Of a stretch of DNA of 64,000 bases, positions 16,780 to 39,500 are shown piece by piece (within the stretch, counting starts at the first letter, position 1; each line of letters starts with the position of its first letter). The stretch is taken from NCBI GenBank assembly GCA_018655015.1, contig JABIKK010000008.1, positions 8,791-72,790 of the forward strand. Direction: 5' to 3'. Under the pieces are notes generated by a model. The model saw only the letters and a list, made by a program, of their open reading frames with translations. It was not told where the DNA came from and searched no databases. This stretch comes from Candidatus Woesearchaeota archaeon. Lineage in GTDB: Archaea > Nanobdellota > Nanobdellia > SCGC-AAA011-G17 > UBA489. Position numbers and translations under genes: made by a program.

Positions 16780-16832
16780 TAATTCTTTATAAACATAAAT
16801 ATTAAAAAGAGGCGTTCTATATTTGATTCCTA

Positions 16833-17489
16833 ATGGCAGATGTTTTAATTATCATTGCACCTCAGGATTTTAAGGATGAGGAGTATTTTCATGTTAGAGA
16901 AGAACTTGAAAATGCAGGACATAAGGTTGTAGTTTCTAGTTTGCAAGATGTTGCTAGTTCTGTTGAGAATAAAGAAGTTGTTACTGATGTTTTAATCGAT
17001 GAAGCAGATGTTGCTGATTATGATGCTTTGGTGCTTGTTGGTGGTGCAGGTGCAAGTGTTTATTTTGAAAATGAGAAAGTTCTTGAAATGTGTTATCAAA
17101 CTGTTGAACAGGGAAAGTTGATCGCTGCTATTTGTATTGCTCCTGGGATATTAGCTAGGGCAGGCGTTTTAGCAGGTAAGAATGCAACTTCATTTGAATC
17201 TGAGTTAGCTACATTGGATGAAGCTGGTGCAATTACTTCCGATAGTCATGTTGTTGTTGATGGACAGATAGTTACTGCTGATGGTCCTCAAGCTGCTAGG
17301 GAGTTTGGTAAAAAGATTGCTGAACTTTTGAAAGAAGATAATGAAGAAGAGGTTGTTGAAGAGACTAAAGAATATTATCCTTCTAACGGTGATGATGAGA
17401 AAACTGATGATGGTTTTGATAAGAATGAGCCTTACTATGGTGATGATAAACATCATGAGAAAAGAGTAGTTGAAGAAGATTCAAATTAA
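16833..17489 (+). CDS. DJ-1/PfpI family protein with an acidic C-terminal extension
   Basis: Nucleophile-elbow Cys in AAICIAPGILARAG. Class I glutamine amidotransferase-like fold. Confidence 0.8.
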   Translation: MADVLIIIAPQDFKDEEYFHVREELENAGHKVVVSSLQDVASSVENKEVVTDVLIDEADVADYDALVLVGGAGASVYFENEKVLEMCYQTVEQGKLIAAICIAPGILARAGVLAGKNATSFESELATLDEAGAITSDSHVVVDGQIVTADGPQAAREFGKKIAELLKEDNEEEVVEETKEYYPSNGDDEKTDDGFDKNEPYYGDDKHHEKRVVEEDSN

Positions 17490-17567
17490 TTTTATCTTGT
17501 TCTAATGTGTTTTATTAATCTAAATCAACATAATCTTTAAATAGAGCTTTTGATTTGATGTAATTCT

Positions 17568-18470: not shown

Positions 18471-19573
18471 TTGAATATGATAGTTATGGTCCAGAAAAAG
18501 TTCTGGAAGTTTACCATCCTAAGTCTGGGATGAGGGGTTTTGTAGTAATTGATAGTACTGCATTGGGTCCTGCTAAAGGTGGAGTTAGAATGACTCCTAC
18601 AGTTACACCACATGAAGTTTCTAGATTGGCAAGAGCCATGACTTGGAAGAATGCTTTGGCAGATTTGCCTTTTGGTGGTGGAAAAGGTGGAATTATTGGT
18701 AATGATAAGGATATGAGCCCTGAAGAAAAAGCTGAATTTGTTAAGGCTTTTGCAGAAGGTTTGAAAGTTATTTGTCCTGAACATTATGTTTCTGCTCCAG
18801 ATATGAATATGGCTGAAAGTGAAATGAAAATTATGGCTGAAACTATTGGAGATATGAAAGCATGTACTGGTAAACCTGCAAACATGGGAGGATTACCTCA
18901 TGAGTTGGGTAGCACTGGTTTTGGAGTTTTTCATTCTACTAAGGTTGCAGTTGAACATTTAGGATTGGACCTGAAAGATTTAACATTTGCAGTTGAAGGT
19001 TTTGGAAATGTTGGATGGTTTGTTTCTAAGTTTATGACTGAAGCAGGATCTAAATTAGTTGCTGCGTCTGACTCAAGAGGAGTAATTTATAATAAAGAAG
19101 GTTTGGACTTCGAAAAATTAGCTAAGGCTAAGGAAGAAGAAAAGACTGTTACCAAATATGGGGATGGTGAAGTTCTACCAAGTCACGACATTAAGAAGGT
19201 TGATGCAGATATTTTGATTACTGCAGCAGTCCCAGATTTAATTAATGCTGGTGATGTTGATGAAATGAAATTCAAATTAATCGTTGAAGGGAGTAATATC
19301 CCAATGATTCATGAGGTTGAAGAACTGCTCCATAAGAAAGGAGTATTAGTTGTTCCAGACTTTGTTGCTAACTCCGGAGGAGTTATGAGTAGTTATGTTG
19401 AGTACATTGGTGGGACAGAAGAAGAAATGTGGAAACTAATTGAAGAAAAAATTACAAAGAATACTAAATTGGTTTTAGATGGAGCTAAAGAAAAAGGTTG
19501 TTCTCCCAGAGAGAAGGGAATGGAAATAGCTGAAAAAAGAGTTTTAGCTAAATGTGACGTTTGTAAGGTCTAA
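18467..19573 (+). CDS. Glu/Leu/Phe/Val dehydrogenase family (glutamate dehydrogenase-like)
   Basis: LPFGGGKGGI motif and NAD(P) domain GFGNVGW. Start overlaps the trxB stop as ATGA. Confidence 0.85.
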   Translation: MIEYDSYGPEKVLEVYHPKSGMRGFVVIDSTALGPAKGGVRMTPTVTPHEVSRLARAMTWKNALADLPFGGGKGGIIGNDKDMSPEEKAEFVKAFAEGLKVICPEHYVSAPDMNMAESEMKIMAETIGDMKACTGKPANMGGLPHELGSTGFGVFHSTKVAVEHLGLDLKDLTFAVEGFGNVGWFVSKFMTEAGSKLVAASDSRGVIYNKEGLDFEKLAKAKEEEKTVTKYGDGEVLPSHDIKKVDADILITAAVPDLINAGDVDEMKFKLIVEGSNIPMIHEVEELLHKKGVLVVPDFVANSGGVMSSYVEYIGGTEEEMWKLIEEKITKNTKLVLDGAKEKGCSPREKGMEIAEKRVLAKCDVCKV

Positions 19574-19865
19574 AGAGATATTTCTTTAGGTCTATTTTAT
19601 TATTTTCTATAATAATTCCTTCTTTTTTTAGTAGTTTTACTTTATTTTTTGTTCCTGAGGCGAAACCACCAATTCTTCCATCTGAATTTATTACTCTATG
19701 GCATGGCACTTCTGGGGCGTAGGGGTTTTTGTTCATAGCAGTTCCTACAGCACGGTATGCCTTTGAATTAAGTGCATTAGCTATTTCTTTGTATGTTGTG
19801 ACTTTCCCCTTTGGCACTTTTTTTAGTACTTTGTAACATCTTTCATTGAAATTCATTTTTACCAT
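19548..19865 (-). CDS. ogt: methylated-DNA-protein-cysteine methyltransferase, short form (C-terminal domain only)
   Basis: VPCHRVINSDGRIGGF active-site PCHRV motif. Only 105 aa. Confidence 0.8.
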   Translation of the reverse strand: MVKMNFNERCYKVLKKVPKGKVTTYKEIANALNSKAYRAVGTAMNKNPYAPEVPCHRVINSDGRIGGFASGTKNKVKLLKKEGIIIENNKIDLKKYLFRPYKRHI

Positions 19866-20763
19866 CCCAAAACTTAATACTCTTTATCTTGTTGTTTTTT
19901 ATTTCTAAAAGGGTATTTACCTTAGGCCCAAAGCCTGCATTGATTACTGTGGTTTTTCCAAGCTTACATTTGGCAAAGTGTTCATGCATATGACCTCCAA
20001 TACAAACTAAAGGTTGATTCTTCTTACAAAATTCTGCAGCTATAGACGATCCAAAATGTTTTTTATAAAACGGATTGTCTTTTTCTAAAATTATGTCTAC
20101 TTTAGTTTTGTAAGGCACATTGTGTGAGATAAATATGTCTGTAAAGTCTCTATTCCTTCTTTTATGTAGTGCTACAAGCCTGTTAAGAATTTTATTATAT
20201 GCTTTTTTCAGTTTAGTTTGTTCTTTAAAGGTTAATCCTTGGTTTCCGTTGGGTTTTTCTGGGCCACTACATAGGCCATATCCTATTATATTAAAATTTC
20301 CAAATTTATGTAGTTTATACTGACAATCTTTTACATTTTTTAGTCCCTGTGTTAATATTTTGTTAGAATGTTTGCTGAGATACATATCTAAATTTGATTT
20401 AAGTCGGTTGTATCTACTTTTTGAAGAGTCTTTTATGTTTGTAGTACCATGGCTTTGATCCCAATTTCCCGGTGTAAAGAAAATTGGTTTGTTAAATTTG
20501 TTTAGGAATTCTAAGGTTTTTCTTCCAATAAGGAGTGACTCTTTTTCTATTTGGTTATATTTTTTCCTTCCTATTAACTTTAAGATGTATTCATCTGAAG
20601 ATATGATCTCTTTAGTTTTCTTTATGTGTTTTTTCCATAAGCCAACATATTTTCGCATCCCTTTATCTGAACATATATCTCCGGGTACAATTATTGCGTC
20701 AAATTCTTTAAAATGGATCTTTGGAATCCTACCATGCAAATCTCCTACAATTAAAAATTTCAT
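19843..20763 (-). CDS. calcineurin-like metallophosphoesterase
   Basis: LIVGDLHGR, IVPGDI and GGHMHEH metal-binding motifs. Confidence 0.75.
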   Translation of the reverse strand: MKFLIVGDLHGRIPKIHFKEFDAIIVPGDICSDKGMRKYVGLWKKHIKKTKEIISSDEYILKLIGRKKYNQIEKESLLIGRKTLEFLNKFNKPIFFTPGNWDQSHGTTNIKDSSKSRYNRLKSNLDMYLSKHSNKILTQGLKNVKDCQYKLHKFGNFNIIGYGLCSGPEKPNGNQGLTFKEQTKLKKAYNKILNRLVALHKRRNRDFTDIFISHNVPYKTKVDIILEKDNPFYKKHFGSSIAAEFCKKNQPLVCIGGHMHEHFAKCKLGKTTVINAGFGPKVNTLLEIKNNKIKSIKFWDGKNEFQ

Positions 20764-21475: not shown

Positions 21476-22834
21476 TTATATGTAGTTTAATGTTGAATAT
21501 GCATACACAGCATTTAGATTGCTGTGGTAAATTACTACACTATTGTATGATTGAATATTTGAGATATAATTGAGTATTTCATATTCCTGTGTTCCTGAAA
21601 CTTCTTGAAGTGGATCTAATAATAAATTTCCTGCATCCAAGTCTTCTTTTGTTGTAACTACTTGTTTAGTTGCAAGATATACGTTTAGGTTTGGATCTAA
21701 GTTTGTGTTAGCTATGGAGAACAACTGGTCAAATATTATTTTATGTGTTCCACTTTCATAAGAATACAGTTCTATGTCTCCCGATGTTATTCTCTGTACT
21801 GCTGTGAAGCTTCCGGTTGAAAGTAATGTTGAACTTGGAGGACAGTCATTATCTGTTGAATAAGCACAGCTGGATGGGCAGCACCCATCGTTTGAATTAC
21901 ACATAGTTATTTCGCTATAAACACATTCTGCAGTACATAGGGACGCTGAACCAAGAAGGGTGTTAGTAGTACAAGTGTTGTTATCATTGCAGGACTGAAC
22001 ATTTATAGGACAATCTCCATCACATTCTTCTGGAGCTTCCTTTACACTGTTTCCACAAACTGGATCACAATCGCTATCTGTTAGAGTTGTGCAATTTGTA
22101 GGGCAATACCCATCTAAGTCTACACATAAAGGGTAATTATGAACGCATTCTTTTGGTGCTCCTTCTGAAGGTGAAACACAAGAATCGATTGTTTCTGGAT
22201 CGTCATCACCACATTCTAAATCAGATGTACAAGCTAGTTGTATTAAACAATCTAGGTCTGTTGTTTCATTACAACCTTCAGGACAGAAATTATCTTCTCC
22301 TATACAAGTAGTTATTTCATTGTTGAAACAAGTTCCTTCTGAACAATAGTCTAATGTGCTAGTTACATTGTCATCACAAATTATAGGGGTACATTCATGG
22401 TTAGACATATCTTCACATGAAGTACAATATAATGGGGAGCATTCATTGTTTAAACAAATTTCATTAAATAAACATTCTTCATTTGTCGAGCAACCATACC
22501 CTTTATTTTCGGTTAGAGGTGTTTTTTTAATATTGTCTTGTGTTTGTTGAGAATATGTTGTTTCTTCATTTGTTGTGTCAGCCGCTGAATCATTTCCAGA
22601 CAATATAAACATAATTGGAATTAAAATTATTATAAAAATTAAGGCAATTCCTAGCAATGTTGTAGTGCTTATGTGTTTTTGTGGTTTGGCTGCAACTGCT
22701 ATTGCCTCGTCTGCTTCAGTTATATTAAACCCTCTAGATAACATAATTTCTCTAGTGGCATCTACCGTAAACCCTCTATTTGAGAGCTCTTTTGCATATT
22801 CAACGGCTTTTTTATTTACCACTTTATTTTCCAA
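21476..22834 (-). CDS. single-pass membrane protein with a large extracellular Cys-rich domain (Myxococcus-type cysteine-rich repeats)
   Basis: Cytoplasmic N-terminus, one TM, then over 60 Cys including CGNSVKEAPEECDGDC, which matches the CGNG..E.GEECD repeat. Confidence 0.6.
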   Translation of the reverse strand: MENKVVNKKAVEYAKELSNRGFTVDATREIMLSRGFNITEADEAIAVAAKPQKHISTTTLLGIALIFIIILIPIMFILSGNDSAADTTNEETTYSQQTQDNIKKTPLTENKGYGCSTNEECLFNEICLNNECSPLYCTSCEDMSNHECTPIICDDNVTSTLDYCSEGTCFNNEITTCIGEDNFCPEGCNETTDLDCLIQLACTSDLECGDDDPETIDSCVSPSEGAPKECVHNYPLCVDLDGYCPTNCTTLTDSDCDPVCGNSVKEAPEECDGDCPINVQSCNDNNTCTTNTLLGSASLCTAECVYSEITMCNSNDGCCPSSCAYSTDNDCPPSSTLLSTGSFTAVQRITSGDIELYSYESGTHKIIFDQLFSIANTNLDPNLNVYLATKQVVTTKEDLDAGNLLLDPLQEVSGTQEYEILNYISNIQSYNSVVIYHSNLNAVYAYSTLNYI

Positions 22835-23756
22835 GTAATCTCAAAAGAATTGCTTTTTGAATGTGAAGCCTATTTTGTGCTTGTGGAAAAACAACAGATC
22901 TCTTTCCATCTATTATTTCTGTTGTAACTTCGTGCCCCCTCATTGCTGGGAGACAATGCATAAATATTGCTGACTTTTTTGTTTTTGAAAATACTTTTCT
23001 ATTAACTTGAAAAGGTTTTAGGTCCTTTAGCCTTCTATCTTTTTCTTCTTGTGGTATTCTGTAAGACATCCATGAGTCTGTGTAAATTACATCGGCGTTC
23101 TTAGCAGCTAATAAGGGATTCGTTGTTATTGTTGCAGGTTTGTTTTTATGTTTTTTCGCCAATTTTTTTATTTCCTTCATTACCTTATCTTTGGGATAGT
23201 ACTCTTTTTGTTTTGGACATGCTATTGTTAGTGTGTTTCCTGTTAGGGCGCAAGCTCTCATTAAAGAATAAGTTACGTTATTTTCTGCATCTCCTAGATA
23301 TGCAATCTTCAATCCTTTTATTTTGCCTAGTTTTTCTTTGATTGTTAAAAAGTCGCCAAGAATTTGACAAGGGTGACCCTCATTTGTCATCATATTTATT
23401 ACAGGTATTGATGCGTTTTTTGCCAATTTCTTTATTTCTGAATGTGAATAGATTCTTGCAGCAATTACATCGCAGTACTGGCTTAGTGTTTTTGCTACAT
23501 CCTCCATAGATTCCTTTCCTAGCCCCCAAGGCGAGTTTTCGGCATAATAGTTTATTGCATCCCCATGCAATTGTGTCATTGCAACTTCGAACGAAACTCT
23601 GGTTCTTAATGATGGGGCTTGAAATATCATAATTAATGACTTTTCGAAAAGACTTCTTGCATACATTGATTTTCTATTTTTTATCTCAATTGCATTTTTT
23701 ATTAATGCTTGAAAGTCTTTTGGACTTAAGTCTGATATGCTTATTAAATTCTTCAT
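22824..23756 (-). CDS. argF: ornithine carbamoyltransferase family
   Basis: SLRTRVSFEVA (STRTR), HCLPA, carbamoyl-P binding. Ornithine-binding loop is atypical (DSWMSY instead of DVWxSMG). Confidence 0.85.
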   Translation of the reverse strand: MKNLISISDLSPKDFQALIKNAIEIKNRKSMYARSLFEKSLIMIFQAPSLRTRVSFEVAMTQLHGDAINYYAENSPWGLGKESMEDVAKTLSQYCDVIAARIYSHSEIKKLAKNASIPVINMMTNEGHPCQILGDFLTIKEKLGKIKGLKIAYLGDAENNVTYSLMRACALTGNTLTIACPKQKEYYPKDKVMKEIKKLAKKHKNKPATITTNPLLAAKNADVIYTDSWMSYRIPQEEKDRRLKDLKPFQVNRKVFSKTKKSAIFMHCLPAMRGHEVTTEIIDGKRSVVFPQAQNRLHIQKAILLRLLGK

Positions 23757-25084
23757 TTTTTCCTCTTTATCTTGACCTTTTTTAGGACATCTTTTATGTC
23801 GGGTTTTCCAATTTCTTTTAGAACATAATTAACCTCTATGAACGGCTTTTTTATCTTTATTTGTCTTTTTAGACTAACTGGTGTTCCGTCAATTACCATA
23901 TCAACTTTTGATTTATTTATTGTATCTTGCAAATCTTTATTTTGTTTGGGAGTGTATCCCATTGCTGGAAGTTCTTTTCCATGGACTAAGTGGGGATATT
24001 TTTTGTAAGTTTCTTTTAATGTGCCTACAATGAATTTGTGAGGTTCAACAATTTTAGCACCATACTTTTTAGCGGCTATTGTTCCTGCACCAAAACTCAT
24101 ACCACCATGTGTTAACGTTGGACCATCACCTACAATTAGAACTTTTTCCCCCTTTAGAGATTTTGGATTTTCAATAACTAGTTTAGATGCGGCTTTTATG
24201 ACGGTCGCTTTTGGATTATGTTTTTTTATATTTTCCATTAATTTTTTGATACCTTCTTTTGGAGCTGAGTCCATTTTATTGATTACTAGAACGTCTGCAG
24301 CTTTGAAATTGACTTCTCCAGGATAATATAACATTTCATGCCCTGCTCTGTGAGGGTCCAGAACTACAATATTAAGATCTGGTTTGTAGAAAGACATGTC
24401 ATTGTTTCCACCATCCCAAATAATTACATCTGCCTCTTTTTCTGCTTTTTTTAGTATCTTACCATAATCTACACCTGCATAGATGGGTATTTCTAATTTT
24501 ACCCAAGGATCATATTCCTCTCTTTCTTCTATAGTGCATTTGTTTTTTATCATATCTTCATAGGTTGTGAATCTTTGTACTTCTTGTTTAACTAAGTCTC
24601 CATAAGGCATTGGATGTCTAATTGCAACAACCTTGTAGCCTTGGTCTCTAAGAATTCTTGCAACTTTTCTTGAAGTCTGAGATTTGCCTGCGCCAGTTCG
24701 GACTGCGGTTATCGAGACTAAAGGTACTTTTGATTTTATTTGAGTTTCTTCAGTTCCTAGTAGGTAGAAGTTTGCTCCTGCTGCGAGAACTGTCGAAGCT
24801 TTATTCATAACCTCTAAATGGGGTAAGTCTGAATATGACAAGTAGACATTACTTACTTTTTTTTGTTTGATTAGATTTGGTAATTGTGATTCAGGATAAA
24901 TTGTAATCCCTTTTTTGTAATACTTTCCTGCAAGTTTTGCTGGGAATTTCCTATCTACTATTCCTGGAATTTGTTCTGCAGTAAAACCAATTACATTGTA
25001 ATAAGGATTGTTTTTGAAGTATACTAAGAAATTATGGAAGTCTCTTCCAGCCGCACCCATTATAATAACGTTCTTTTTCACCAT
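23753..25084 (-). CDS. P-loop protein, possibly cyclic 2,3-diphosphoglycerate synthetase-like (COG2403/DUF1611-like). Function uncertain
   Basis: N-terminal Rossmann-like VIIMGAAGRDFHNF. Walker-A-like AVRTGAGKSQT. Lies between carbamate kinase and OTC with overlapping ends. Confidence 0.45.
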   Translation of the reverse strand: MVKKNVIIMGAAGRDFHNFLVYFKNNPYYNVIGFTAEQIPGIVDRKFPAKLAGKYYKKGITIYPESQLPNLIKQKKVSNVYLSYSDLPHLEVMNKASTVLAAGANFYLLGTEETQIKSKVPLVSITAVRTGAGKSQTSRKVARILRDQGYKVVAIRHPMPYGDLVKQEVQRFTTYEDMIKNKCTIEEREEYDPWVKLEIPIYAGVDYGKILKKAEKEADVIIWDGGNNDMSFYKPDLNIVVLDPHRAGHEMLYYPGEVNFKAADVLVINKMDSAPKEGIKKLMENIKKHNPKATVIKAASKLVIENPKSLKGEKVLIVGDGPTLTHGGMSFGAGTIAAKKYGAKIVEPHKFIVGTLKETYKKYPHLVHGKELPAMGYTPKQNKDLQDTINKSKVDMVIDGTPVSLKRQIKIKKPFIEVNYVLKEIGKPDIKDVLKKVKIKRKK

Positions 25085-25091
25085 CTTTTAA

Positions 25092-26039
25092 TTACCTCTT
25101 TATGATTGTTCCACTTTGTCCTATTAATGCTTTTTGTATTTTGTTTGGAGATGTAATTATTGTGTGTTTACCACCTTTTTTTATGAATTTAATCGCGGCC
25201 TCTATTTTTGGACCCATAGAACCTTTTGGGAATTGTCCTTCTTTTAATAGTTTAGAAGCTTCTTTTATGGTTAAGCTTTTTATTGGTTTTTGATTCTTCT
25301 TTTTATAATTGAGATATGCGTTGGGTTCGTTCATAAGAATTATTAATGTTTTTGCTTTTATCGAGTTAGCTAGGCATGCAGATGCTAAATCTTTATCTAT
25401 TACTGCTGGCGCACCATGTAAAATCTTTCCCTTATCTTTAACTATTGGAACTCCGCCGCCGCCTGCCGCAATAACAATTGATTTATTCTTTAGTAATACA
25501 TCAATTATCTTTACATCATCAATGGACTTAGGTTTTGGTGAGGCTACGACTTTTCTCCAACCCCTTCCAACTTGTTCAACAATTTTATAACCTTTTTTCT
25601 TTATTTTTTGCGCTTGCGCTTTGCTGTAAAATGGACCAATGGGTTTTGTAGGGTTTTTGAATGCCGGATCTTTTTTATCTACAATTACTTGTGTTAGTAC
25701 GCTCACTACTGGAATTTTTATTTTATTTTTTGTTAAAACATTTTGTAAACTTTGTTCAATCATGTAACCTAATTCACCCTGTGATTCTGCAACACATACT
25801 TCTAATGGAATTGAGTATGCTTTTCCTAAAGATTCTTCAACACGGATTAGAATATTTCCAACTTGAGGCCCATTTCCATGAGTTATAACTAATTTATTTT
25901 CGTTTTTTATTAATGGAATTAAATATTCCATAGTCTTCTTTGCGTTCTTGAATTGATTAGAAATTGTAGGTTTCTCACCTGTTTTAATGAGGGCATTTCC
26001 TCCTAGTGCTACTACTACCTTTTCACCTCTTCTAAGCAT
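25092..26039 (-). CDS. arcC: carbamate kinase
   Basis: VVALGGNAL and HGNGPQVG signatures, amino-acid kinase fold. Confidence 0.9.
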   Translation of the reverse strand: MLRRGEKVVVALGGNALIKTGEKPTISNQFKNAKKTMEYLIPLIKNENKLVITHGNGPQVGNILIRVEESLGKAYSIPLEVCVAESQGELGYMIEQSLQNVLTKNKIKIPVVSVLTQVIVDKKDPAFKNPTKPIGPFYSKAQAQKIKKKGYKIVEQVGRGWRKVVASPKPKSIDDVKIIDVLLKNKSIVIAAGGGGVPIVKDKGKILHGAPAVIDKDLASACLANSIKAKTLIILMNEPNAYLNYKKKNQKPIKSLTIKEASKLLKEGQFPKGSMGPKIEAAIKFIKKGGKHTIITSPNKIQKALIGQSGTIIKR

Positions 26040-27487: not shown

Positions 27488-28090
27488 ATGAAAGAGGATA
27501 GGCCGAATTGGATTTATATTGTATCTTTGATAGTATTTATTGGGCTAATCTTTATTGCTTATTTTTCTGGAGTTAGAGACTATGTTAATGATGGGATTAT
27601 TATGATCTTCTTATTATCTTTAGCATTTTTTGCATGGGATTCTTTAAAACTCAAACCTTGGGTATTTTTACTAATCGCTTTTGGATTTTTGTTACACAAC
27701 TTTGGAGTTTTTGGATTCTATAATGATTCTCCATTGTTTATTCAATGGGACCATATAACTCACTTTTTTGGTGAGTTGGCAATGGGGGCCTTTGTGTTTA
27801 ATTACATGTACCGGAGCGGTATTTTTGTTGGTGGGAAACTACAAACATTCTATTTATGTTCTATTGCAGTTTTAGCGGCTATGGGCTTTGGCGTTTTTGT
27901 GGAGTTTATGGAGTTTGGAGGTTATTTTCTTGTTGGTGAAGGTGCAGGAGTTTTAGGCCATGGTTTGGGAGATATAAATACAGAATTTATTAATAGTGAG
28001 TGGTTCAACACAATGTTTGATTTGATTTACAATTTTATTGGGGCTGTTGTTGGGGTTGTGATTGCCTATTTTGTTTCTAGAATTAAGTAA
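27488..28090 (+). CDS. polytopic membrane protein (about 6 TM), unknown function
   Basis: Hydrophobic profile, several conserved-looking His. Convergent with the CuA protein. Confidence 0.55.
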   Translation: MKEDRPNWIYIVSLIVFIGLIFIAYFSGVRDYVNDGIIMIFLLSLAFFAWDSLKLKPWVFLLIAFGFLLHNFGVFGFYNDSPLFIQWDHITHFFGELAMGAFVFNYMYRSGIFVGGKLQTFYLCSIAVLAAMGFGVFVEFMEFGGYFLVGEGAGVLGHGLGDINTEFINSEWFNTMFDLIYNFIGAVVGVVIAYFVSRIK

Positions 28091-28526
28091 CTATTATTTT
28101 TCCAGCCATATGACTATGTCCGGATCCACAGAACACGCTACAACTGAAACTGAATTCTCCAATTTTATCTGCTGTGAATTTTATATCTATACTTTGACCT
28201 GGTTGTAAATCTTCATTTATGTTAAATTCTGGGATTAGAATTCCATGTGTTACATCTAAACTAGTGATATGGAGGATTACTTCATTTCCGAGATCAACAT
28301 TAATTATTGAGGGATTAAATTCCCAATTTTTTGCAGTTATTTCGAATTCTTTTATGTTTGAAGTTGTTTTTGGAATGTTCTCATTTTCAATGACGATACT
28401 CATCCCAGGAGGTTCTTCAATTTCAGGAATTCCTTGCTGAGAGGGATTTTCTTCGGTAGCGGAAGGGTTGCATCCAATTAGCAGAACTAAGGTTGTTAGA
28501 ATTATGAGTATAAGCCCTCTTTTCAT
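28083..28526 (-). CDS. lipoprotein with a cytochrome c oxidase subunit II-type CuA cupredoxin domain
   Basis: Lipobox LLIGC. TSLDVTHGILIPEF (COX2 TSxDVxHSxxxP motif). 35 residues later, CSVFCGSGHSHM gives C-x3-C-G-x2-H-x2-M, the full CuA ligand set. Confidence 0.7.
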   Translation of the reverse strand: MKRGLILIILTTLVLLIGCNPSATEENPSQQGIPEIEEPPGMSIVIENENIPKTTSNIKEFEITAKNWEFNPSIINVDLGNEVILHITSLDVTHGILIPEFNINEDLQPGQSIDIKFTADKIGEFSFSCSVFCGSGHSHMAGKIIVT

Positions 28527-28682
28527 AGAATTTTGATATTTTTCTTTCTTTTAAATGAATTGTTTTTTTGATGAGTTAACAATTGTTTACTGGAGCATAT
28601 AAATCTTAATAAATGCTAATTGTTGCTTAAATAGACATTTACAAGCCTTTTTTGGCTTTATTACATTCTTTGGAGGAATAAA

Positions 28683-29261
28683 ATGACTGATGAAATTAAA
28701 TTAGAAATTGGAGAAATGGCTCCTAGTTTTACTGCTGAAGCTTTAGTTGGAAATGATACTAAAAAAGTAAGTCTTAGTGATTACAAGGGTAAGTGGGTAG
28801 TTCTATTTTTCTATCCTGCAGATTTTACATTTATCTGCCCAACAGAACTTGGAGATTTAGCTGATAAGTATGAGGAGTTTAAGGCAATTAACACTGAAAT
28901 TTTGAGTGTTAGTACTGATACTGCTTTTGTACACAAAGCTTGGAAGGATAATTCTGAAACAATTAAGAAAATAAATTTTCCAATGATTGCAGACCCTACT
29001 GGTAGGATGTGTAGGAATTATGGAACTTACATACGTGATGAAGGTTTATCTTTAAGAGGAACTTTTGTTATAGATCCTGAAGGAAATTTGAAAGCTTATG
29101 AATTACACGATAATTCTATTGGCAGAAGCACTAATGAGTTGTTAAGAAAAATTAAAGCTGCACAATTTGTTGAAGAGCACGGCGATCAAGTTTGTCCTGT
29201 TAATTGGGAACCTGGAAATGATACATTAAAACCTGGAATGGATTTAGTTGGTAAAATATAA
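28683..29261 (+). CDS. peroxiredoxin (2-Cys Prx/AhpC family)
   Basis: FTFICPTE peroxidatic Cys motif and resolving-Cys region VCPVNW. Confidence 0.9.
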   Translation: MTDEIKLEIGEMAPSFTAEALVGNDTKKVSLSDYKGKWVVLFFYPADFTFICPTELGDLADKYEEFKAINTEILSVSTDTAFVHKAWKDNSETIKKINFPMIADPTGRMCRNYGTYIRDEGLSLRGTFVIDPEGNLKAYELHDNSIGRSTNELLRKIKAAQFVEEHGDQVCPVNWEPGNDTLKPGMDLVGKI

Positions 29262-29844
29262 AATGGGATATAAATTACCTGAACTAAATTATGGCTATGA
29301 TGCTTTGGAACCATACTATGATGAGGGAACATTAGAATTACATCATACAAAACATCATGCGGGATATGTTGCTGGTTTGAATAATGCTGTTGCTAAGCTA
29401 AAAGAAGCTAGGGAGAATGGAGATTATTCTTTAGTTAAGCATTGGGAAAAAGAATTAGCATTTCATGGTGCGGGACATTACTTACATAGTTTGTTCTGGG
29501 AAAATCTAAGAGTTGGATCTGAGGACAATAAATCAACCGGTGCTGTTTTTGAAGCTATTGAAGATACCTTTGGTAGTTTTGATAAATTTAAGGAAGAGTT
29601 TTCCAAAGTAACTTTAGCTGTTGAAGGTTCTGGCTGGGGAGTTTTAGCTAGAGGTCCTGAAGGAGATTTGAAGATCTTTTCAGTTGAGAATCATCAAAAG
29701 GTTTTCATTCCGGGATATAAAATACTTTTAGTTTGTGATGTATGGGAACATGCTTATTACTTGAAGTATCAAAATAGAAGGGCCGAATGGATTGAGAACT
29801 TCTTTAAGATAGTTAATTGGGAAGAAGTTGAAAAGAGGTTTTAA
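29248..29844 (+). CDS. sodA: Fe/Mn superoxide dismutase
   Basis: HHTKHH and DVWEHAYY metal-ligand motifs. Start overlaps the Prx end. Confidence 0.9.
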   Translation: MVKYKMGYKLPELNYGYDALEPYYDEGTLELHHTKHHAGYVAGLNNAVAKLKEARENGDYSLVKHWEKELAFHGAGHYLHSLFWENLRVGSEDNKSTGAVFEAIEDTFGSFDKFKEEFSKVTLAVEGSGWGVLARGPEGDLKIFSVENHQKVFIPGYKILLVCDVWEHAYYLKYQNRRAEWIENFFKIVNWEEVEKRF

Positions 29845-30167: not shown

Positions 30168-31709
30168 TTGTTTATGTCTGAAGTGCCTAAGGAAATAAAG
30201 AAGATTTCTGATTTTGAGTGGGAGTTGCCTACAAGTTACAAGAAAGGAATGAATGTTCCGGCTAGAATTATTGCTAATGAATCTCTTTTGAAAGGGATGG
30301 ATAAGGGCGTTTTTGATCAAGTAACTAATATTGCTTGTTTACCTGGAATTCAGAAAAATGCTTTTTGTATGCCCGACGGTCATTGGGGTTATGGTTTCCC
30401 AATTGGCGGTGTTGCGGCGTTTGATGTTAATGAAGGAATAATTAGTCCTGGGGGAATTGGATTTGATATTAATTGTGGGATGAGATTAATTACAACTAAT
30501 TTAAGTTACAAAGAAGTTAAACCTCAGTTAAAGAAATTAGTCGATCATTTGTTCTTAACTGTCCCTTCTGGTGTTGGTTGTAAAGGTTTTTTGAAATTAA
30601 ATAATCAACAGTTTGATGACATCATGTTGGGCGGTGTTAAATGGTGCGTTGAAAATGGTTATGGTGTTGAAAGTGATATGTGGAACACTGAAGGTTATGG
30701 TTGTATTGAACAAGCGGATGTTGAAAAAGTTTCAGATAGAGCTAGAAAAAGAGGAATTAGTCAATTAGGGACATTAGGTTCTGGAAATCATTATTTAGAA
30801 ATACAACTAGCTAAGTCTGTAAATGTTTTTGATTCGGATGTTGCAAAAAAGTTTGGAATTATTGGGGATGATCAAGTTGTTATTATGGTTCATTGTGGAT
30901 CAAGAGGATTTGGACACCAGGTGGCTACAGATTATTTGAAAGTTTTTGATAAATCAATGGATAAGTTTGGGATAAAAATTAATGATAGGGAATTAGCTTG
31001 TGCCCCTTTTAATTCGGATGAAGGGCAGGATTACTACAAGGCAATGGCTTGCGCCTCAAATATGGCCTTTGCTAATAGACAAGTGATAACTCATAGGATT
31101 AGAGAAGCTTTTTCTAAAGTATTTAGTAAGAGTCAGGAACAGATGGATATGAATTTAGTCTATGATGTTGCGCATAATATTGCTAAAGTTGAAGAACATA
31201 AGATTGAGGGTAAGATGAAGAAAGTTGTTGTGCATAGAAAGGGTGCAACAAGAGCATTTCCTCCCAAACATAAAGAATTATGTCCTAAGTATAGGCCTGT
31301 TGGTCAACCAGTAATTTTGGGCGGAAGTATGGAGACTGGATCTCATTTGTTAGTTGGAACTCAAAAGGCAATGGATGTTACTTTTGGAAGTACAGCTCAT
31401 GGTTCTGGTAGAACAATGTCGAGAACTAAGGCTAAGAAAGAGTTTCAAGGAAAAGAATTACAAGAAAGAATGATGAAGAAAGGAATTTATGTTAGATCTT
31501 CAAGCATGCAAGGTTTGGCAGAAGAAGCTGGAAAGGCGTATAAAAATATTAATTCTGTCGTAGATGTTTTGAATGAGTATGGGATTGCAAAGAAAGTTGT
31601 TGGTTTTAACCCAATAGGGAATGTTAAAGGCCATGCAAGTTTATCCTACTTAAGTTTATTGCCTTTTTTTGCATTACTGTTTGTTTTATTAATGAACTTA
31701 GTTGTTTGA
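30168..31709 (+). CDS. rtcB: RtcB RNA 3'-phosphate ligase (tRNA-splicing ligase) with a ~25-aa hydrophobic C-terminal extension
   Basis: GHWGYGFPIGGV, NHY and HCGSRGFGHQV motifs. Likely true start is the ATG at 30174. The canonical C-terminus ...PIGNVKG ends at 31631, and the ORF runs on into the 3' end of the convergent homing-endonuclease gene. Confidence 0.9.
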   Translation: MFMSEVPKEIKKISDFEWELPTSYKKGMNVPARIIANESLLKGMDKGVFDQVTNIACLPGIQKNAFCMPDGHWGYGFPIGGVAAFDVNEGIISPGGIGFDINCGMRLITTNLSYKEVKPQLKKLVDHLFLTVPSGVGCKGFLKLNNQQFDDIMLGGVKWCVENGYGVESDMWNTEGYGCIEQADVEKVSDRARKRGISQLGTLGSGNHYLEIQLAKSVNVFDSDVAKKFGIIGDDQVVIMVHCGSRGFGHQVATDYLKVFDKSMDKFGIKINDRELACAPFNSDEGQDYYKAMACASNMAFANRQVITHRIREAFSKVFSKSQEQMDMNLVYDVAHNIAKVEEHKIEGKMKKVVVHRKGATRAFPPKHKELCPKYRPVGQPVILGGSMETGSHLLVGTQKAMDVTFGSTAHGSGRTMSRTKAKKEFQGKELQERMMKKGIYVRSSSMQGLAEEAGKAYKNINSVVDVLNEYGIAKKVVGFNPIGNVKGHASLSYLSLLPFFALLFVLLMNLVV

Positions 31710-32547
31710 CCGGTTTTTCAATGTCTTTGTATTTTACTTTTTTTGATTTGTTTATTTTATAAATAAGATTTACTTTTGCTATTTTTTCTTTGTGTCTAAT
31801 TGGTAAGATATTTAGAAGTTTGAGAACTTCGTTTTTTCTACAAATTTCAATGACATAATAATCCTTGTTGTATCGGAATATTTTCCCATTATGCGTACTT
31901 GTGTCTCCTTTTGAGTGATTTTTATGCATCGAAACGAAATATCCATTATCTTGTAAAATTTCTTTTATTTTGATTAATCTTTCAAGTTTTTGACTGAAAA
32001 GTCTAACTACAAACTGAAAATATTCTCCTGTTTTTCTCACCAAAATACTTCCATCTGCATCAATGTAACCCGCTAAAAAATGGAAGAAATTTTCTTTATC
32101 TATCCAATTTGGGATTCTATTTTCCTTTGAATTTATGAGGAAATTGAAGCTCTCTAAACAAATGTGTGACTGGAATCTATATTGTTCCTCTTTTTTCGTT
32201 AACTTGTAATTTGTTATGCCATATTCTTTGAACGATTTAAGTAAAAGGTCTCCAAATAAGGGATGTGTTGTGTGAGTAATTAATTTTAAAGTGTAGTTTG
32301 ATTTTTTTACAGGCGTTAAATCGCCCATCACTAGTCCAAACAGGTAAGCCTTTTCTTTAGATTCCACATTAAATTTCTTTTTTTCTTTAATGTGTCCCAT
32401 TGAGATGAGAGAATCTCTACTATTCCTGATTTTTATATTATTTTTTCCTAATGTTTTTCTTACAGTACTTCTATTTATTTCTAGATTCCTAGATATTTCT
32501 CTTATAGGCCTATTGTGGGCATATAACTTTATGATTGTTGATTCCAC
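31624..32547 (-). mobile_element. free-standing double-motif LAGLIDADG homing endonuclease gene
   Basis: N-terminal HTH-like region, motif 1 YLFGLVMGDL, motif 2 FLAGYIDADGSILV. It is antisense to its rtcB/archease neighbours, so it is not an in-frame intein. Confidence 0.75.
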
Positions 32548-32672
32548 ATATTGGTCTAGATAATAATGTTTATAATCCTCGACTGATTAGTTGGTAGGTA
32601 CGATAAATGCCAAAAATAAAGTCTCGTCGTAATCCTAAAATAGTTAAAAAGAAGAATATTGGGTTAATAATT

Positions 32673-33095
32673 ATGAGATCACATAAGTTTTTAGAGGATG
32701 TTGCTATTGCTGATGTTGCATTTGAAGCTAAAGGGGGTAATTTGAATGAAGTTTTTGAAGCATGTGGCGATGCTACCTTTGAGACCATTGCTGATTTGAA
32801 GACTATCGGAGATATTGAAACTTACAATTACGCTGCTGAGAGCGAAAATATTGAAGACTTACTTTATGAATTTTTAGAGGAAATAGTTTACCTTAAGGAT
32901 ACTGAATCTTTGATTTTTAAGAAATGTGAGGTGAAAATCTCTGGAGATTATAATATTAAGGCTAAATTTATTGGGGAAAAAATAGATCGAGAAAAACAAA
33001 CATTGAATACTGATGTGAAGGCAGTTACAATGCATATGTTTAGTTTAAAGAAGGAAAATGATGAATATATGGCCACAGTGGTACTTGATATTTAA
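32673..33095 (+). CDS. archease (RtcB activator)
   Basis: From the internal Met: MRSHKFLEDVAIADVAFEAKGGNLNEVFEA ... ATVVLDI matches the archease family (YxEHTADxxxxxxG...LEELF...V.DI). The ORF-track start at 32607 is probably too long. Confidence 0.85.
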   Translation: MRSHKFLEDVAIADVAFEAKGGNLNEVFEACGDATFETIADLKTIGDIETYNYAAESENIEDLLYEFLEEIVYLKDTESLIFKKCEVKISGDYNIKAKFIGEKIDREKQTLNTDVKAVTMHMFSLKKENDEYMATVVLDI

Positions 33096-35136: not shown

Positions 35137-36453
35137 ATGAAAATGACAAGACACATAAAGAATATAGCCTTCTTTGTTTTAGCTTTGGTGGCATTAATAG
35201 GTACTGCTGTATCTGTTAGCGCAACTCCAGATTATCAGATAATTTCAGTTGAAGTTAATGATCTAAACATTGTAGGTAGTACCCTTGACGTTGAGAGGGG
35301 CGAAAGATTGGATATTGAAGTTAGGATAGAAGCAGGAAATACTTCTACCGAAGACGTTCAAGCATCCGGTTGGATAAATGGTTATGAGTTTGGAAGAATT
35401 TTTGATTCAACTGAACTATTTGACATGGACTCAGGTAAGACTTATTTGAAGACTCTAACATTGTATGTTCCAGAAGATATAGAAGCTTCTGAAGATTATA
35501 CTTTGAGAATTGAGGTTTCTGATAGACAAGATCAAGTTGAAGAAACTTTTGATTTGTTTATTGATGAGCAGAGACATGGTTTAGCGATCTTTGACGTTCT
35601 TTTGAACCCAAGTAGCACAATTGCTGCAGGAAACACATTGTTTACTACAGTTAGATTGGAAAATCTTGGATCTAAGGAAGAGAATGACATTAAAGTGACT
35701 GTATCCATTCCAGCATTAGGTGTAAGCACTGTTAATTATCTTGACGAGCTTAATACTGAGGCGCAGGAAGAGGGTGAAGATCACCTAAGAAACGATAATA
35801 GTAAGCAGATAGATCAAATCATTAGGATTCCTATCGATGCTGTTACTGGAGTCTATGATGTACAAGTAGATATTGAGTACAACAGAGGAAACAGCTTCTT
35901 GAGTAAGACTTTGAGTCTTAATGTAGAAGGTGTTAACCAAGCTTCCGGAGCACAGACTGTTATTAATAGTGACTCTAGCTCAAAAGTAGTTAGTGTTGGT
36001 GAATCAGCTGAGTATAAGGTAATGATGGCAAACTTAGGTTTAGAGCCTGGAGTTTATTCCGTAACTGTTGATGGAGTATCAGCATGGGGAGAAGCTGTAG
36101 TGCAACCTAGTTTCTTGACTGTTATGCCTGATTCAACTGGTGAAGTTACAATTACTGTAACACCATACGATTCAGCAGAAGCTGCAAGTCACACATGGGT
36201 AGCTAAAGTTATGCTAGGAACTGACGTTCTAAGCGAGCTTGTGTTTACTACAAAAGTTGAAGCAGAGAATGTTGTTGAAAGGACTGACGATACAGTTAAG
36301 TCTATTTTGACTGCGATCTTCTTTATCTTGTTGATAGTATTGGTTATTTTGGCTATTGTTATTGCTTTTAGAAAAGTTAGAAGCGATGATGAGGACGACG
36401 AGGGTACAACCCTTGAAGGTCAAACTTATTACCAATATTACCCGAGAAACTAA
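35137..36453 (+). CDS. cell-surface protein: signal peptide, beta-sandwich (CARDB-like) domains, C-terminal TM anchor and acidic tail
   Basis: SP MKMTRHIKNIAFFVLALVALIGTAVSVSA. C-terminal ILTAIFFILLIVLVILAIVIAF plus DDEDDEG tail. Confidence 0.65.
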   Translation: MKMTRHIKNIAFFVLALVALIGTAVSVSATPDYQIISVEVNDLNIVGSTLDVERGERLDIEVRIEAGNTSTEDVQASGWINGYEFGRIFDSTELFDMDSGKTYLKTLTLYVPEDIEASEDYTLRIEVSDRQDQVEETFDLFIDEQRHGLAIFDVLLNPSSTIAAGNTLFTTVRLENLGSKEENDIKVTVSIPALGVSTVNYLDELNTEAQEEGEDHLRNDNSKQIDQIIRIPIDAVTGVYDVQVDIEYNRGNSFLSKTLSLNVEGVNQASGAQTVINSDSSSKVVSVGESAEYKVMMANLGLEPGVYSVTVDGVSAWGEAVVQPSFLTVMPDSTGEVTITVTPYDSAEAASHTWVAKVMLGTDVLSELVFTTKVEAENVVERTDDTVKSILTAIFFILLIVLVILAIVIAFRKVRSDDEDDEGTTLEGQTYYQYYPRN

Positions 36454-36565: not shown

Positions 36566-39500
36566 TTGTATAAGAAGTATATTACAAAAAAAGGGAAGAA
36601 GGTAGGGCCTTATTATTATGATAGTATTAGATTGAAGAATGGTCGAGTTAAATCTGTTTATCTTGGTAGTGATGAGAAGAAAGCTAGACAGAAATTAAAA
36701 GTTTTAAAGAAAGAAAGTTCTAAGGCTGTTCATAAAAGAAGTAGTGCAACTCTTAAAAAATCTTTAAATCCTAGATCAAACGCCAAATTGATTGGCGATC
36801 ATAATGTTCATGTGAGGGATAGAGTTTTCTTATCTATTGTTTTAATTATGATGTTAGTTAGCTTTATGCATTTTGGAGGTATTATTGGTGGAGATTCTAG
36901 TGAAAGTATTAATGGTGGGTTTGTAAATGAGTTTAGGACTTTCTCTGATATGGCTCGCGAAGGTTTTTCAGAAAGTAATAAAATAACAGGAGAAGTTATT
37001 TTTTCAAATAGAAATGAAATTACTGGAGAATCTATTTTTTCTAAGTCTGTTGATCCCGAAGAACATTCTCATGATGTTTCTTTTTTGGTAAGTGAAAGCT
37101 CAGAGTATAGGTTAAATTTTGAGAATGTTGAAAAATTATTAAGTTTGAAGGTTTCAGGAAGAATTGCTTATTTTGAAGGGGGGATTGCTAAGGTTTTCTT
37201 ATCCGATGTTGACTCTGGGGATACCTATTTAGTTTATGATAGTGAATTATCTAAAGATGAAAATATTTTGGATGCTGTAGGTATAACTGGGAGTGTTGTG
37301 TTAGAGGAAAAGTTAGAGAAATCAAAGAGTTACAAAGATATTGTGTCTTCATTAACGGGGTTCAATGTTGTTGATTCTAAAGGCAAGTTTGTGAATTATG
37401 GGCTATCTAATGGGAGCAATGGTACCGCGATTATTGATTTAAGAAACAAAGATGTTTTTGAAATTGAGTATCCTAAAAAAGAGGGATGGATTGCTTATGA
37501 GGAATATTCTTCAAGAGGTTTAATTGAACCAACTAATATCTCTTTTGAAAGGGTGTTTGGGTTTGACTTTAGTGGATTGAACATTTCTAGGTTTAATGAA
37601 ACGAATACATCATTTAGTACTTCGCCAGAAGGCTCCTATCTTTATGGTTGTAGTTTTTGGGATTTTGAATTTGGAATTTGTTTATCTGATTGGGTTTTCT
37701 TTTTTGATTTAAACAAAACTAATAATTATACTGTTAGTTTGACTACTGAAGTAATGGCCTTTGCTGAAGGCATTTTAGATTTGGATGACGAGGAAGAGAA
37801 AAAACTTGAGGAAGTAGTTGAAGAAGTTGAAGAAAACAAAACAGACTTTTTGATTGATATTTTAGATGTTTTGAACATTACTAGTTATGGTATTGATTCT
37901 TTTGATTCTATTTGTGAAGGTACTTGTAAGATGAAGAATGTTTGGGGTAATAATTTTCTTTTGAAGGTTTATGTTAAGGATTCTATTTTAGATTTAGATT
38001 TAATCGAAACAGAATCTGAGGTTTTAGAGGGAGGAGTGTATTCTCTTTCCATCATTGATGGAATTGGAAGCATTTTATTGGGAGGAGGGGATGGTTCTGA
38101 ATTAGTGGGGGGTGTTGATGATCAAGTTGGAGGGATTACTGAATTCTTTGATAATGGTAATTTTACTGAAGAAGTAGTGCAATTTGGGGCTGTAATTGAT
38201 CAACCTGTTAAGTGGAAGAAAAAAATAATTTTAGATTCTGCAAAGAAAGATGTTGAATTTGAGATCCCTGATACTGCAGAAAATATCACTTTAAAGAAGA
38301 TTGTTAGTGGGAAAATATTGAATGTTATATCTGCAGGATTGGATGAGGGCAATGGTACTATTATCAACTTAACAGAGGGAAATAGTGGGTTTTCTGATAA
38401 TCTATTGAATTCTATGACAGGTAATGCGATAACTGGTATGGCTGTTGCGGAGACACCTTTGTTGGAGAATATTTCTTCAAAAGTCTTGAGTGTTAATGTG
38501 AGTAATAATACTGATACTATTTTTGTGGACGATTTAGTAAATACTGTGGAAGTTGAATATGAAACTCCAGGCCCAAGATTGGAAGTTCAAAATAAAACTA
38601 ATGGGTTTAGAGTTGTTTTAAAATCTGATATTGAGTATGTGAATATTTTTACATTCCTTGATATTCCAGAAACTCCTATGAATAAAGTAAGACTTTACCA
38701 AGTTACAGTGGATAATGTTACGGGGAGAGAATATAGGATTAAACATAATTATACTTTGTATGGGTCTAATAATACTGGATTGGCGAATTATATTGAATGG
38801 ATGATTCCTACTTCAGGAGATGATACTTTTGATATTCAAACTGAAATAAATGCAACGGCGGCAATTCATTTGGATGAGAACTATGTTTATATCAGTGATA
38901 TTTTTGATGAAGTACAATTTGAGGATGTTATATGGAGTGAGACAATCTATAGGGATGATTATGTAAGGGTTACTTTTGAAAAAAACTTAACGAATGGTAG
39001 GTTGATTGATGTGATTGCGAGAAGTAATGGTTCTTTATCTTATTTTGAAATTTATGAAGCTAATACGACTAATTTGGTGGGTAAATCTTCAGTTGTTGAT
39101 TATCCAGAAGTTCAATATATTGAAGTGAGTGGTTTGAGTAAACCTACAGATGTATTTGACTTTAAATTTATGAACTTGGTTAGTGATCCTGAAGACTATA
39201 AGGCTTGTGTCAAGTTGGGTTATTGGGTTTGTGACAGAAATCCGGAATCTTCAGAGAACTGTCATGCGGAGGTAGAAGAAGATTGTAATTCTCCAGTTTA
39301 TGATCTAAATAGAACTTCAACTATGGAGTTTGATTTTATTCACGACGATGTTATTAATTCTACACAGGCGGAAGGTATGATCGTATATATTCAATCAGAA
39401 AGTGCGACACCCAGATATAGATTTTGGAATGAATCTGATGATTTCGAGGCTGAACAAAGTGCTCTGGCTACGGGAAGTGATGGGACTGATGATATTGCAT

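Follow-up and report, generated by a model that had tools for sequence, protein, structure and literature searches.

The 64-kb stretch of DNA analysed here, hereafter the window, is part of a 265,914-bp contig of a Candidatus Woesearchaeota archaeon and encodes on its minus strand a stand-alone CuA cupredoxin of 147 amino acids (aa) (positions 28083–28526, stop codon 28083–28085). CuA centres are textbook parts of a few respiratory enzymes: cytochrome oxidase, nitrous oxide (N2O) reductase and one NO reductase. The single minus-strand open reading frame (ORF) specifies the protein MKRGLILIILTTLVLLIGC NPSATEENPSQQGIPEIEEPPGMSIVIENENIPKTTSN IKEFEITAKNWEFNPSIINVDLGNEVILHITSLDVTHGILIPEFNINEDLQPGQSIDIKFTADKIGEFSFSCSVFCGSGHSHMAGKIIVT, which is 100% identical to the NCBI entry 'hypothetical protein HOF78_01015 [Candidatus Woesearchaeota archaeon]' and divides into a short signal/anchor helix, a flexible tether and a cupredoxin domain. 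Our analysis reveals a complete, strongly conserved CuA site within this minimal cupredoxin domain, and places the gene in a large family of free-standing CuA proteins.

The ligand set reads H94-x34-C129-x3-C133-x3-H137-x2-M140, in which the 35 positions from H94 to C129 match the canonical CuA spacing. An earlier note on this DNA had claimed a complete set with this spacing, and H94, C129, C133, H137 and M140 can each be read in the ORF, the last four also in the DNA at 28107–28142. The first CuA histidine H94 lies together with D91 in TSLDVTHGILIP (residues 88–99, 28230–28265, minus strand), while the bridging cysteines C129 and C133, H137 and M140 lie in CSVFCGSGHSHM (residues 129–140, 28107–28142, minus strand), with Val131 at the position of the backbone-carbonyl ligand. 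All five ligands are invariant in 25 of 25 homologues, as are D91, G95, G134 and G136, and the loss of ligands that the earlier note had named as evidence against its claim is not seen. Across a wider set of aligned domains D91 and H94 are invariant (169 of 169), and an aromatic residue (W/F/Y) occupies in every one of the 169 the position aligning with the electron-entry Phe of Thermus CuA. The motif CxxxCxxxHxxM is present in 171 of 173 retrieved family representatives, and the H-x34-C spacing occurs in 158 of 175 motif occurrences (175 in 171 proteins, a few of which carry two). Taken with the Pfam and structural matches described below, this conservation indicates that the motif did not arise by chance. 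We infer that a binuclear CuA centre is assembled, and occupied by copper, outside the cytoplasmic membrane.

Residues 1–19 form a signal/anchor helix (28470–28526, minus strand) that carries the features of a lipoprotein signal: an n-region MKR with Lys and Arg, a 13-residue hydrophobic stretch with the h-region GLILIILTTLVLL, and a terminal lipobox LLIGC ending at Cys19 (residues 15–19, 28470–28484), of which LIGC fits the pattern [LVI][ASTVI][GAS]C. An AlphaFold model computed from 25 sequences places a helix at residues 3–16, followed by a 38-residue tether (residues 20–57, 28356–28469, minus strand) that is low-complexity, acidic, rich in Glu, Pro, Ser and Asn and free of secondary structure, with predicted local distance difference test (pLDDT) values of 53–61. 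The remaining 90 residues (58–147, 28086–28355, minus strand) fold as a cupredoxin β-sandwich with pLDDT mostly above 90 across residues 58–146. No COX2_TM match was found in a Pfam search of the protein, in agreement with the earlier claim that a lipobox stands in place of the transmembrane (TM) hairpin of oxidase subunit II. The CuA protein is predicted to be exported and held at the membrane by a cleavable or lipidated anchor. Similar features recur in the family, where 96 of 173 representatives carry a lipobox-like motif (94 of these together with the CuA motif), 142 relatives have an equivalent linker of 3–114 aa (median 51) rich in E, T, P, A, S and Q, and others bear alternative anchors including SLH or DUF7282 domains. 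The disordered, length-variable linker and the alternative anchors argue for a tethered mobile domain as opposed to a subunit of a complex.

Comparison with known protein families supports cupredoxin superfamily membership and assigns the protein to neither of the classical CuA enzymes. As the earlier note had proposed, we searched hidden Markov models (HMMs) and predicted the structure, and both confirm the fold: the protein matches Pfam Cupredoxin_1 (PF13473; 47.2 bits, cutoff 27, residues 53–146) and Pfam COX2 (38.2 bits, cutoff 22), and the best Foldseek matches of the model are the CuA domains 2cua, 6ptt and 1ehk_B (E ~1e-8 to 1e-7, 34–36% identity). Against the NCBIfam models the score falls below membership, with 62.4 bits for CoxB (TIGR02866, cutoff 147.7; residues 75–146 alone align) and 61.6 bits for clade II NosZ (cutoff 625, E = 4.5e-17, residues 45–146); the NosZ models TIGR04246 and TIGR04244 give 61.6 and 43.3 bits against cutoffs of 625. 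The partial matches to CoxB and to clade II NosZ are thus of equal strength. By sequence, the closest solved structures are the CuA domains of Thermus ba3 oxidase and chimeras built from these domains (E between 4e-16 and 1e-13), then other oxidases and NosZ. By structure, the CuA domains are followed by NosZ and then by Bacillus anthracis Cupredoxin_1 (4hcf) and Streptococcus pneumoniae CupA (4f2e), at 20–22% identity.

These comparisons set the protein apart from each of its nearest known counterparts. Thermus thermophilus ba3 subunit II (2cua, 1ehk_B) shares the ligands, their spacing, the cupredoxin fold and an aromatic residue at the electron-entry position, with 34–36% identity over ~91 residues, but the Woesearchaeal protein lacks a docking TM helix or hairpin and a subunit I, has a lipobox and disordered tether instead, and carries Val (CSVFC) as the carbonyl-ligand residue where the oxidase has Glu or Gln. 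The C-terminal domain of clade II, Sec-type NosZ aligns with the CuA domain and resembles it in the CS-x-FC context, whereas the seven-bladed propeller and CuZ centre of NosZ are missing; nosDFYL-type accessory genes are likewise absent among the annotated window genes. CupA and 4hcf are similar in being small, membrane-anchored, single cupredoxin domains with a copper site and are structural neighbours (E ~3e-7), yet identity is merely 20–22% and the site here is H..CxxxCxxxHxxM and not Cys...Cys-x-Met-x-Met, which places the protein outside the CupA type.

The family extends far beyond this window. A profile search of 1.84 billion cluster representatives retrieved 986 proteins at E ≤ 1e-30 and 6,874 at E ≤ 1e-10, and the best 150 matches are mostly single-domain proteins of 130–200 aa with some tandem arrays. 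Relatives occur in 502 species-representative genomes, the best 80 of which belong overwhelmingly to DPANN archaea (Woesearchaeota, Nanoarchaeia, Micrarchaeota, Aenigmatarchaeota and Undinarchaeales) and to bacteria of the candidate phyla radiation (CPR; Magasanik-, Kerfeld-, Uhr- and Parcubacteria). The window domain is 54–65% identical to its 40 closest relatives, with one exception at 74%; these relatives span archaeal and CPR-type bacterial contigs, and identity among the top 40 resolves no subclade to which a gene context could be linked. Some metagenome-assembled genomes (MAGs) titled 'uncultured Methanosarcinales' or 'uncultured Gammaproteobacteria' share synteny with Woesearchaeota or CPR contigs, and their labels look unreliable (loci L009, L013, L019, L030 and others; L035, L050, L075, L080 and others). 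The gene order of L050, for example, is that of L001, whose flank has a run of T4SS-pilin genes.

Domain fusions further illustrate the modular nature of the CuA unit. Two membrane-anchored proteins from a DPANN group archaeon (P0173 and P0174, 42% identical) carry a CuA domain at the C-terminus, fused to thioredoxin-like domains; P0173 shows three CxxC motifs, and P0174 has the same domain set by Pfam. In loci such as L004 and L037 the thioredoxin-like part and the CuA part are adjacent separate genes. Other CuA fusions involve a Cytochrom_D1-like propeller, DUF7282, SLH cell-wall anchors, a P19-type iron-transport domain and an ArsP-type permease. The variety of fusions suggests that the CuA module is a portable unit for electron transfer outside the cytoplasm that can be combined with different anchors and partners.

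Proteins of this kind have been described before. Among 33 DPANN MAGs of oxygen-deficient zones, Zhang et al. (mBio 2024, PMC10936187) reported genes annotated nosZ in 21; the encoded proteins have a CuA site and no CuZ, their predicted location is outside the membrane, the genomes contain no other respiratory components, and the genes were placed between Cox2 and clade II NosZ (PMC10936187). The same study tied the genes to such zones, stating that they occur nowhere else, and considered N2O reduction possible, and complementation of a Pseudomonas aeruginosa nosZ mutant by the DPANN genes was negative (PMC10936187). By features and HMM scores the window protein is like the proteins of Zhang et al., which are short, come from DPANN archaea including Woesearchaeota, carry CxxxCxxxH without CuZ, are predicted to be extracytoplasmic and belong to non-respiring hosts; their nosZ-HMM scores are 20–58 bits (E down to 8e-17), a range whose top is near the 61.6 bits (4.5e-17) of the CuA protein on the NCBIfam clade II model. 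Acyl-carrier and fatty-acid contexts reported by Zhang et al. are also seen in some relatives here (L093). Since CuA-only nosZ-like proteins of DPANN archaea have been on record since 2024, the window gene is a further member of an existing kind. In contrast to the earlier description, the relatives retrieved here were found in groundwater, in the Black Sea and at further sites and include CPR bacteria, and the restriction to oxygen-deficient zones fails for the family as retrieved here. The informative contexts also differ, consisting here of superoxide dismutase (SOD) and peroxiredoxin (Prx), thiol-disulfide proteins and VIT1. New in this work are the colinear trio of SOD, CuA and Prx genes behind a Fur-family regulator on an unrelated groundwater contig, the links and fusions to thioredoxin-fold and DsbD proteins, and the adjacency to VIT1.

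In the window, the CuA gene diverges from a pair of antioxidant genes. A 156-bp intergenic region (28527–28682) separates it from a 2-Cys Prx of the AhpC/TSA family (28683–29261, plus strand; Pfam AhpC-TSA, 1.5e-42) and an Fe/Mn SOD (29263–29844, plus strand; Pfam Sod_Fe_N and Sod_Fe_C), the two neighbours that the earlier note had named and that Pfam confirms. The listed ORF of the SOD starts at 29248; its likely ATG is at 29263, one base past the Prx stop. Both proteins lack a signal peptide and so are read as cytoplasmic. In the intergenic region, TTTAAAAG precedes the CuA ATG by ~25 nt on the minus strand and GGAGG stands before the Prx ATG; promoter roles are presumed for these elements. 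An inverted-repeat scan also found the 10-bp palindrome AACAATTGTT in this region, and a role as a shared operator was rejected, with 5 matches in the window versus 8.7 expected. A near-perfect palindrome GTTAACAATTGTTTAC at 28574–28591 within the divergent promoter region is possibly a regulator site, and it does not recur in the rest of the window more often than chance predicts. A scan for sigma-70 promoters and terminators found 6 versus 10 expected and is uninformative for an archaeal host. On the other side, a DUF2238 membrane-protein gene (27488–28090) is downstream of and convergent with the CuA gene, overlapping it by 8 bp, and a DUF4389 gene lies just beyond it, upstream of DUF2238 on the same strand. 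The DUF2238 and DUF4389 genes, ORFs of 145, 180 and 70 aa, and a DM13 protein have no counterpart near any homologue, and these window-specific neighbours are therefore not taken as partners.

We compared gene contexts by calling ORFs in 85 non-redundant genome and look-up loci and the window, clustering the neighbours of these loci by blastp, and searching a further 83 loci (including 80 metagenome loci) with the resulting family models. One informative context is a groundwater locus from the Hainich oxic well H51, L111 (2434–6371), in which genes for a Fur-family regulator, a nitroreductase, an Fe/Mn SOD, a CuA lipoprotein, a 2-Cys Prx, a pterin-4a-carbinolamine dehydratase and an EndoIII-like protein follow one another on one strand, with a divergent ZIP transporter gene upstream. 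Its CuA protein is 45% identical to that of the window, SOD, CuA and Prx are the sole genes common to both loci, and the run looks like an oxidative-stress operon containing the CuA gene. L003, L080 and L111 each have SOD immediately beside CuA in the same orientation: in L080 the two genes overlap by 4 nt, and in L003 the CuA gene precedes an SOD-family gene across a 29-bp gap. In L016 and L163 an SOD gene lies within four genes. By a rough estimate that assumes one SOD per ~1,000 genes, adjacency in three of ~150 loci is ~10 times chance. In L080 we also noted, at 16787–20263, an HMA-type P-type ATPase (CopA-like) adjoining a DsbD_2–cupredoxin fusion with a CupA-type Cys...CSMGM site; this cupredoxin is distinct from the CuA-type gene that overlaps SOD.

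Thiol-disulfide and metal-transport genes recur more widely. A DsbD-type or thioredoxin-fold gene lies within three genes of the CuA gene in 24 of 85 loci, and a DsbA-like gene in L094 runs over the CuA start codon, with an overlap of 4 nt. In relatives no gene precedes CuA directly more often than VIT1: 16 of 85 loci have it within three genes, 13 of them immediately upstream and in the same orientation, and it is commoner among near than among far genes (Fisher p = 1e-6). It appears again in 13 of the 83 later loci. Pfam searches of representatives identify further recurrent neighbours as a small ATP-cone protein, two DsbD_TM-type membrane families and DsbA/Thioredoxin_4 proteins; a small thioredoxin, a multi-thioredoxin protein of 380–412 aa, an NTF2-like lipoprotein and several unassigned families also recur, and five neighbour families (HxH247, unk287, Cys-rich 258, TM138 and unk165) have no Pfam or NCBIfam match. 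These families often occur together in a conserved Woesearchaeal cluster of ~35 loci (including L010, L013, L021, L025, L033, L041, L055, L119, L136, L149 and L155) that comprises a 247-aa His-motif protein, a DsbD-like protein, the ATP-cone protein, VIT1 and CuA. The cluster continues either with the NTF2-like lipoprotein, a TM protein with CxxxC and the 247-aa protein, or with a 287-aa protein, a second CuA, a DsbD-like protein, two Cys-rich proteins, the small thioredoxin and the multi-thioredoxin protein. Because many loci are interrelated, these counts overstate the number of independent events.

A catalytic partner was found neither in the window nor beside its homologues. Pfam searches, which covered every window ORF of 430 aa or more and the majority of the shorter ones, recovered proteins such as GlxRS, FttA, SMC, RtcB, asparagine synthase/diphthamide synthase and large surface proteins among the larger ORFs, and annotated no COX1, NosZ, cytochrome, Sco, PCuAC or P-type ATPase in the 64 kb. 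A screen of 1,551 ORFs within ±10 kb in the 85 loci and the window, combining the GHPxVY motif and TM counts, found no COX1 near the homologues, and no COX1-sized neighbour recurs among the further 83 loci within up to ±6 kb. The earlier statement that no subunit I or N2O reductase is nearby thus extends from the window to ~170 homologous loci, and the operon-like association with subunit I that the earlier note had said would speak against a stand-alone protein appears in none of them. The earlier suggestion of a host probably lacking aerobic respiration also fits: FttA, RtcB/archease and diphthamide synthase give the window an archaeal gene content, the host is a Woesearchaeote, and coxABC and all other electron-transport complexes are absent from 446 Nanobdellota genomes including Woesearchaeales (2026 preprint). 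From these comparisons, the CuA protein is unlikely to be a subunit of a heme-copper oxidase or N2O reductase.

We propose that the CuA protein is an extracytoplasmic, free one-electron relay tied to envelope redox and oxidative-stress defence and not a respiratory subunit, a reading drawn from gene content and context to which we give about an even chance. In this model the protein would shuttle single electrons at the cell surface by cycling between Cu1.5+/Cu1.5+ and Cu+/Cu+. Electron donors would be envelope reductants, namely the CcdA/DsbD-type membrane proteins and thioredoxin-fold proteins that are adjacent or fused in relatives, and acceptors would be extracytoplasmic oxidants such as superoxide, other O2-derived species or oxidised metal ions. 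Such a relay would complement the cytoplasmic SOD and Prx, from whose promoter region the CuA gene diverges. The direction of electron flow and the identities of donor and acceptor are inferred. A more specific proposal, which we regard as speculative and unlikely, is that the CuA lipoprotein serves, in cells lacking a respiratory chain, as the outside arm of oxidative-stress defence, either as the terminal module of electron export or as an outer-sphere superoxide oxidoreductase or dismutase. The export line would be free of heme and quinone and could run from NADPH through thioredoxin reductase, thioredoxin, CcdA/DsbD and a thioredoxin-like protein to CuA and on to extracellular oxidants. 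The CuA potential of ~+250 mV lies inside the potential range used by all SODs. A stand-alone CuA centre of natural origin would, if either form of the proposal is true, have a catalytic or terminal role for the first time.

Several observations weigh against a relay in oxidative-stress defence. SOD is found within four genes in just 5 of ~168 non-window loci, many of them interrelated, and contexts are heterogeneous, with many loci lacking a redox neighbour and showing instead, for example, an acyl carrier protein synthase/acyl-ligase operon (L093), CorA (L001) or tRNA synthetases. The VIT1 adjacency points to iron and not to reactive oxygen species, and the window itself contains no DsbD/CcdA or extracytoplasmic thioredoxin gene. 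By analogy with TlpA and Sco, which serve CoxB in this way, the neighbouring thioredoxin and DsbD proteins could be maturation factors; they would hold the two CuA cysteines in the reduced state for the insertion of copper. Maturation is the conservative reading of these neighbours, and that they feed electrons to CuA may be the case as the bolder one. CuA centres are also buried, coordinatively saturated and normally unreactive with small molecules (PMC6115626).

Among other explanations, the likeliest is copper buffering or chaperoning, in which the Cys2His2Met site would sequester surface Cu(I) or hand it on for tolerance, like CupA or CopI. The Foldseek matches to CupA (4f2e, E = 3.4e-7) and to copper-bound B. 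anthracis Cupredoxin_1 (4hcf) agree with this, as do a weak NCBIfam CopI match (E = 0.033), a homologue in L006 that lies between a P-type ATPase gene and a CsoR-type repressor gene plus a second large gene, the His/Glu-rich linker of P0061, and DsbD-like and DsbA-like neighbours reminiscent of the Scs copper-tolerance system. CupA binds Cu(I) via Cys and Met without His and is located in a cop operon. Such CupA-type sites use Cys and Met alone, however, whereas both His ligands and the axial Met are invariant here; identity is higher to CuA domains than to CupA and 4hcf (34–36% versus 20–22%); cop genes (P-type ATPase, CsoR/CopY-type repressor) were not found in the window; and in L080 it is the true CupA-type cupredoxin that adjoins CopA while the CuA-type gene is coupled to SOD. 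We consider copper buffering improbable, and of the two functions that the earlier note had left side by side the L080 arrangement favours electron transfer over copper handling. An iron-linked role, slightly less probable again, would have the protein oxidise surface Fe2+ (or reduce Fe3+) with the VIT1 exporter, comparable to the cupredoxin modules of EfeO and FtrB. In its favour stand the recurrence of VIT1 in both sets of loci, the fusion P0200 of a P19-type Iron_transport domain to a COX2-type domain (named 'iron transporter'), the window VIT1 between two ferredoxins (14430–15836), and the best-matching Pfam family, Cupredoxin_1, which is of EfeO type. The window VIT1 is nevertheless 13 kb away in another transcription unit, the VIT1 link is concentrated in one conserved Woesearchaeal cluster and so reflects few independent events, and a one-electron centre with no onward acceptor would work stoichiometrically at most.

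The thiol-disulfide contexts also allow the reverse direction of chemistry, with CuA re-oxidising DsbA-like proteins in quinone-less cells in place of DsbB or VKOR. DsbA/Thioredoxin_4 genes adjoin or are translationally coupled to the CuA gene in L094, L056, L085, L061 and L107, multi-thioredoxin–CuA fusions exist, Cys-rich secreted proteins belong to these clusters (and the window encodes a DM13 surface protein that is likewise Cys-rich), and thiols are thermodynamically able to reduce CuA. Yet DsbD/CcdA-type neighbours are normally reductive, a VKOR gene is also near in L004, no DsbA-like gene is present in the window, and reduced CuA would still require an acceptor, which together make a disulfide oxidant quite improbable. 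Still less probable is that the protein is an oxidase subunit II or a part of N2O reductase, with the catalytic subunit encoded at another place in the genome. In favour of this, the protein matches best the single-TM-helix subunit II of ba3 oxidase and the C-terminal domain of NosZ, the view covers 64 kb of a 266-kb contig, and N2O reduction was raised as a possibility by Zhang et al. (PMC10936187). Against this stand the scores far under curated cutoffs (62 versus 147.7 for CoxB and 62 versus 625 for NosZ), the missing β-propeller and CuZ part, a lipobox and disordered, length-variable tether incompatible with rigid docking, the lack of an adjoining COX1 in all ~170 homologous loci, the absence of coxABC from 446 genomes of the phylum (2026 preprint) and the negative complementation of the P. 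aeruginosa nosZ mutant (PMC10936187). Given the lack of a propeller and the negative outcome of the published complementation (PMC10936187), we rejected the N2O reductase reading.

These results define a family of natural free-standing CuA proteins, with ~1,000 clusters at 50% identity, concentrated in ultrasmall, non-respiring DPANN and CPR lineages, and raise the question of what role a high-potential one-electron copper centre has on the surface of a fermentative episymbiont. The gene contexts argue against annotating such genes as cytochrome oxidase subunit II or nosZ, labels that make aerobic respiration or N2O consumption look more common in metagenomes than they are. The family also supplies bioinorganic chemistry with naturally soluble CuA domains, and the SOD–CuA–Prx operon, the thioredoxin/DsbD fusions and couplings, and the VIT1 adjacency make function directly testable.

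Other features of the window lie further from the CuA gene. The VIT1 gene, of the Fe/Mn efflux family, sits between two small single-cluster ferredoxin genes; the window also holds genes for a DJ-1/PfpI protein (16833–17489) and a thioredoxin-reductase-like protein (17568–18470). The DM13 protein (21476–22834, minus strand) is a membrane-anchored, very Cys-rich extracellular protein of 452 aa with a C-terminal DM13 domain (Pfam 'Electron transfer DM13'). Consecutive genes at 22824–26039 (minus strand) encode ornithine carbamoyltransferase, a CobW/ParA-like NTPase of 443 aa and an amino-acid kinase resembling carbamate kinase. They represent part of an ATP-yielding pathway of the arginine-deiminase type; no arginine deiminase was seen. 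Within 30168–33095, the RtcB ORF extends ~25 codons beyond the usual ...VKG C-terminus and its 3′ end overlaps a minus-strand ORF with helix-turn-helix and LAGLIDADG_3 domains (31624–32547), followed by archease (32607–33095). A 2,193-aa ORF at 36566–43147 (plus strand) has Laminin_G_3 as its sole Pfam match, and further large surface-type ORFs are located at 5516–8275 (CARDB) and 35137–36453.

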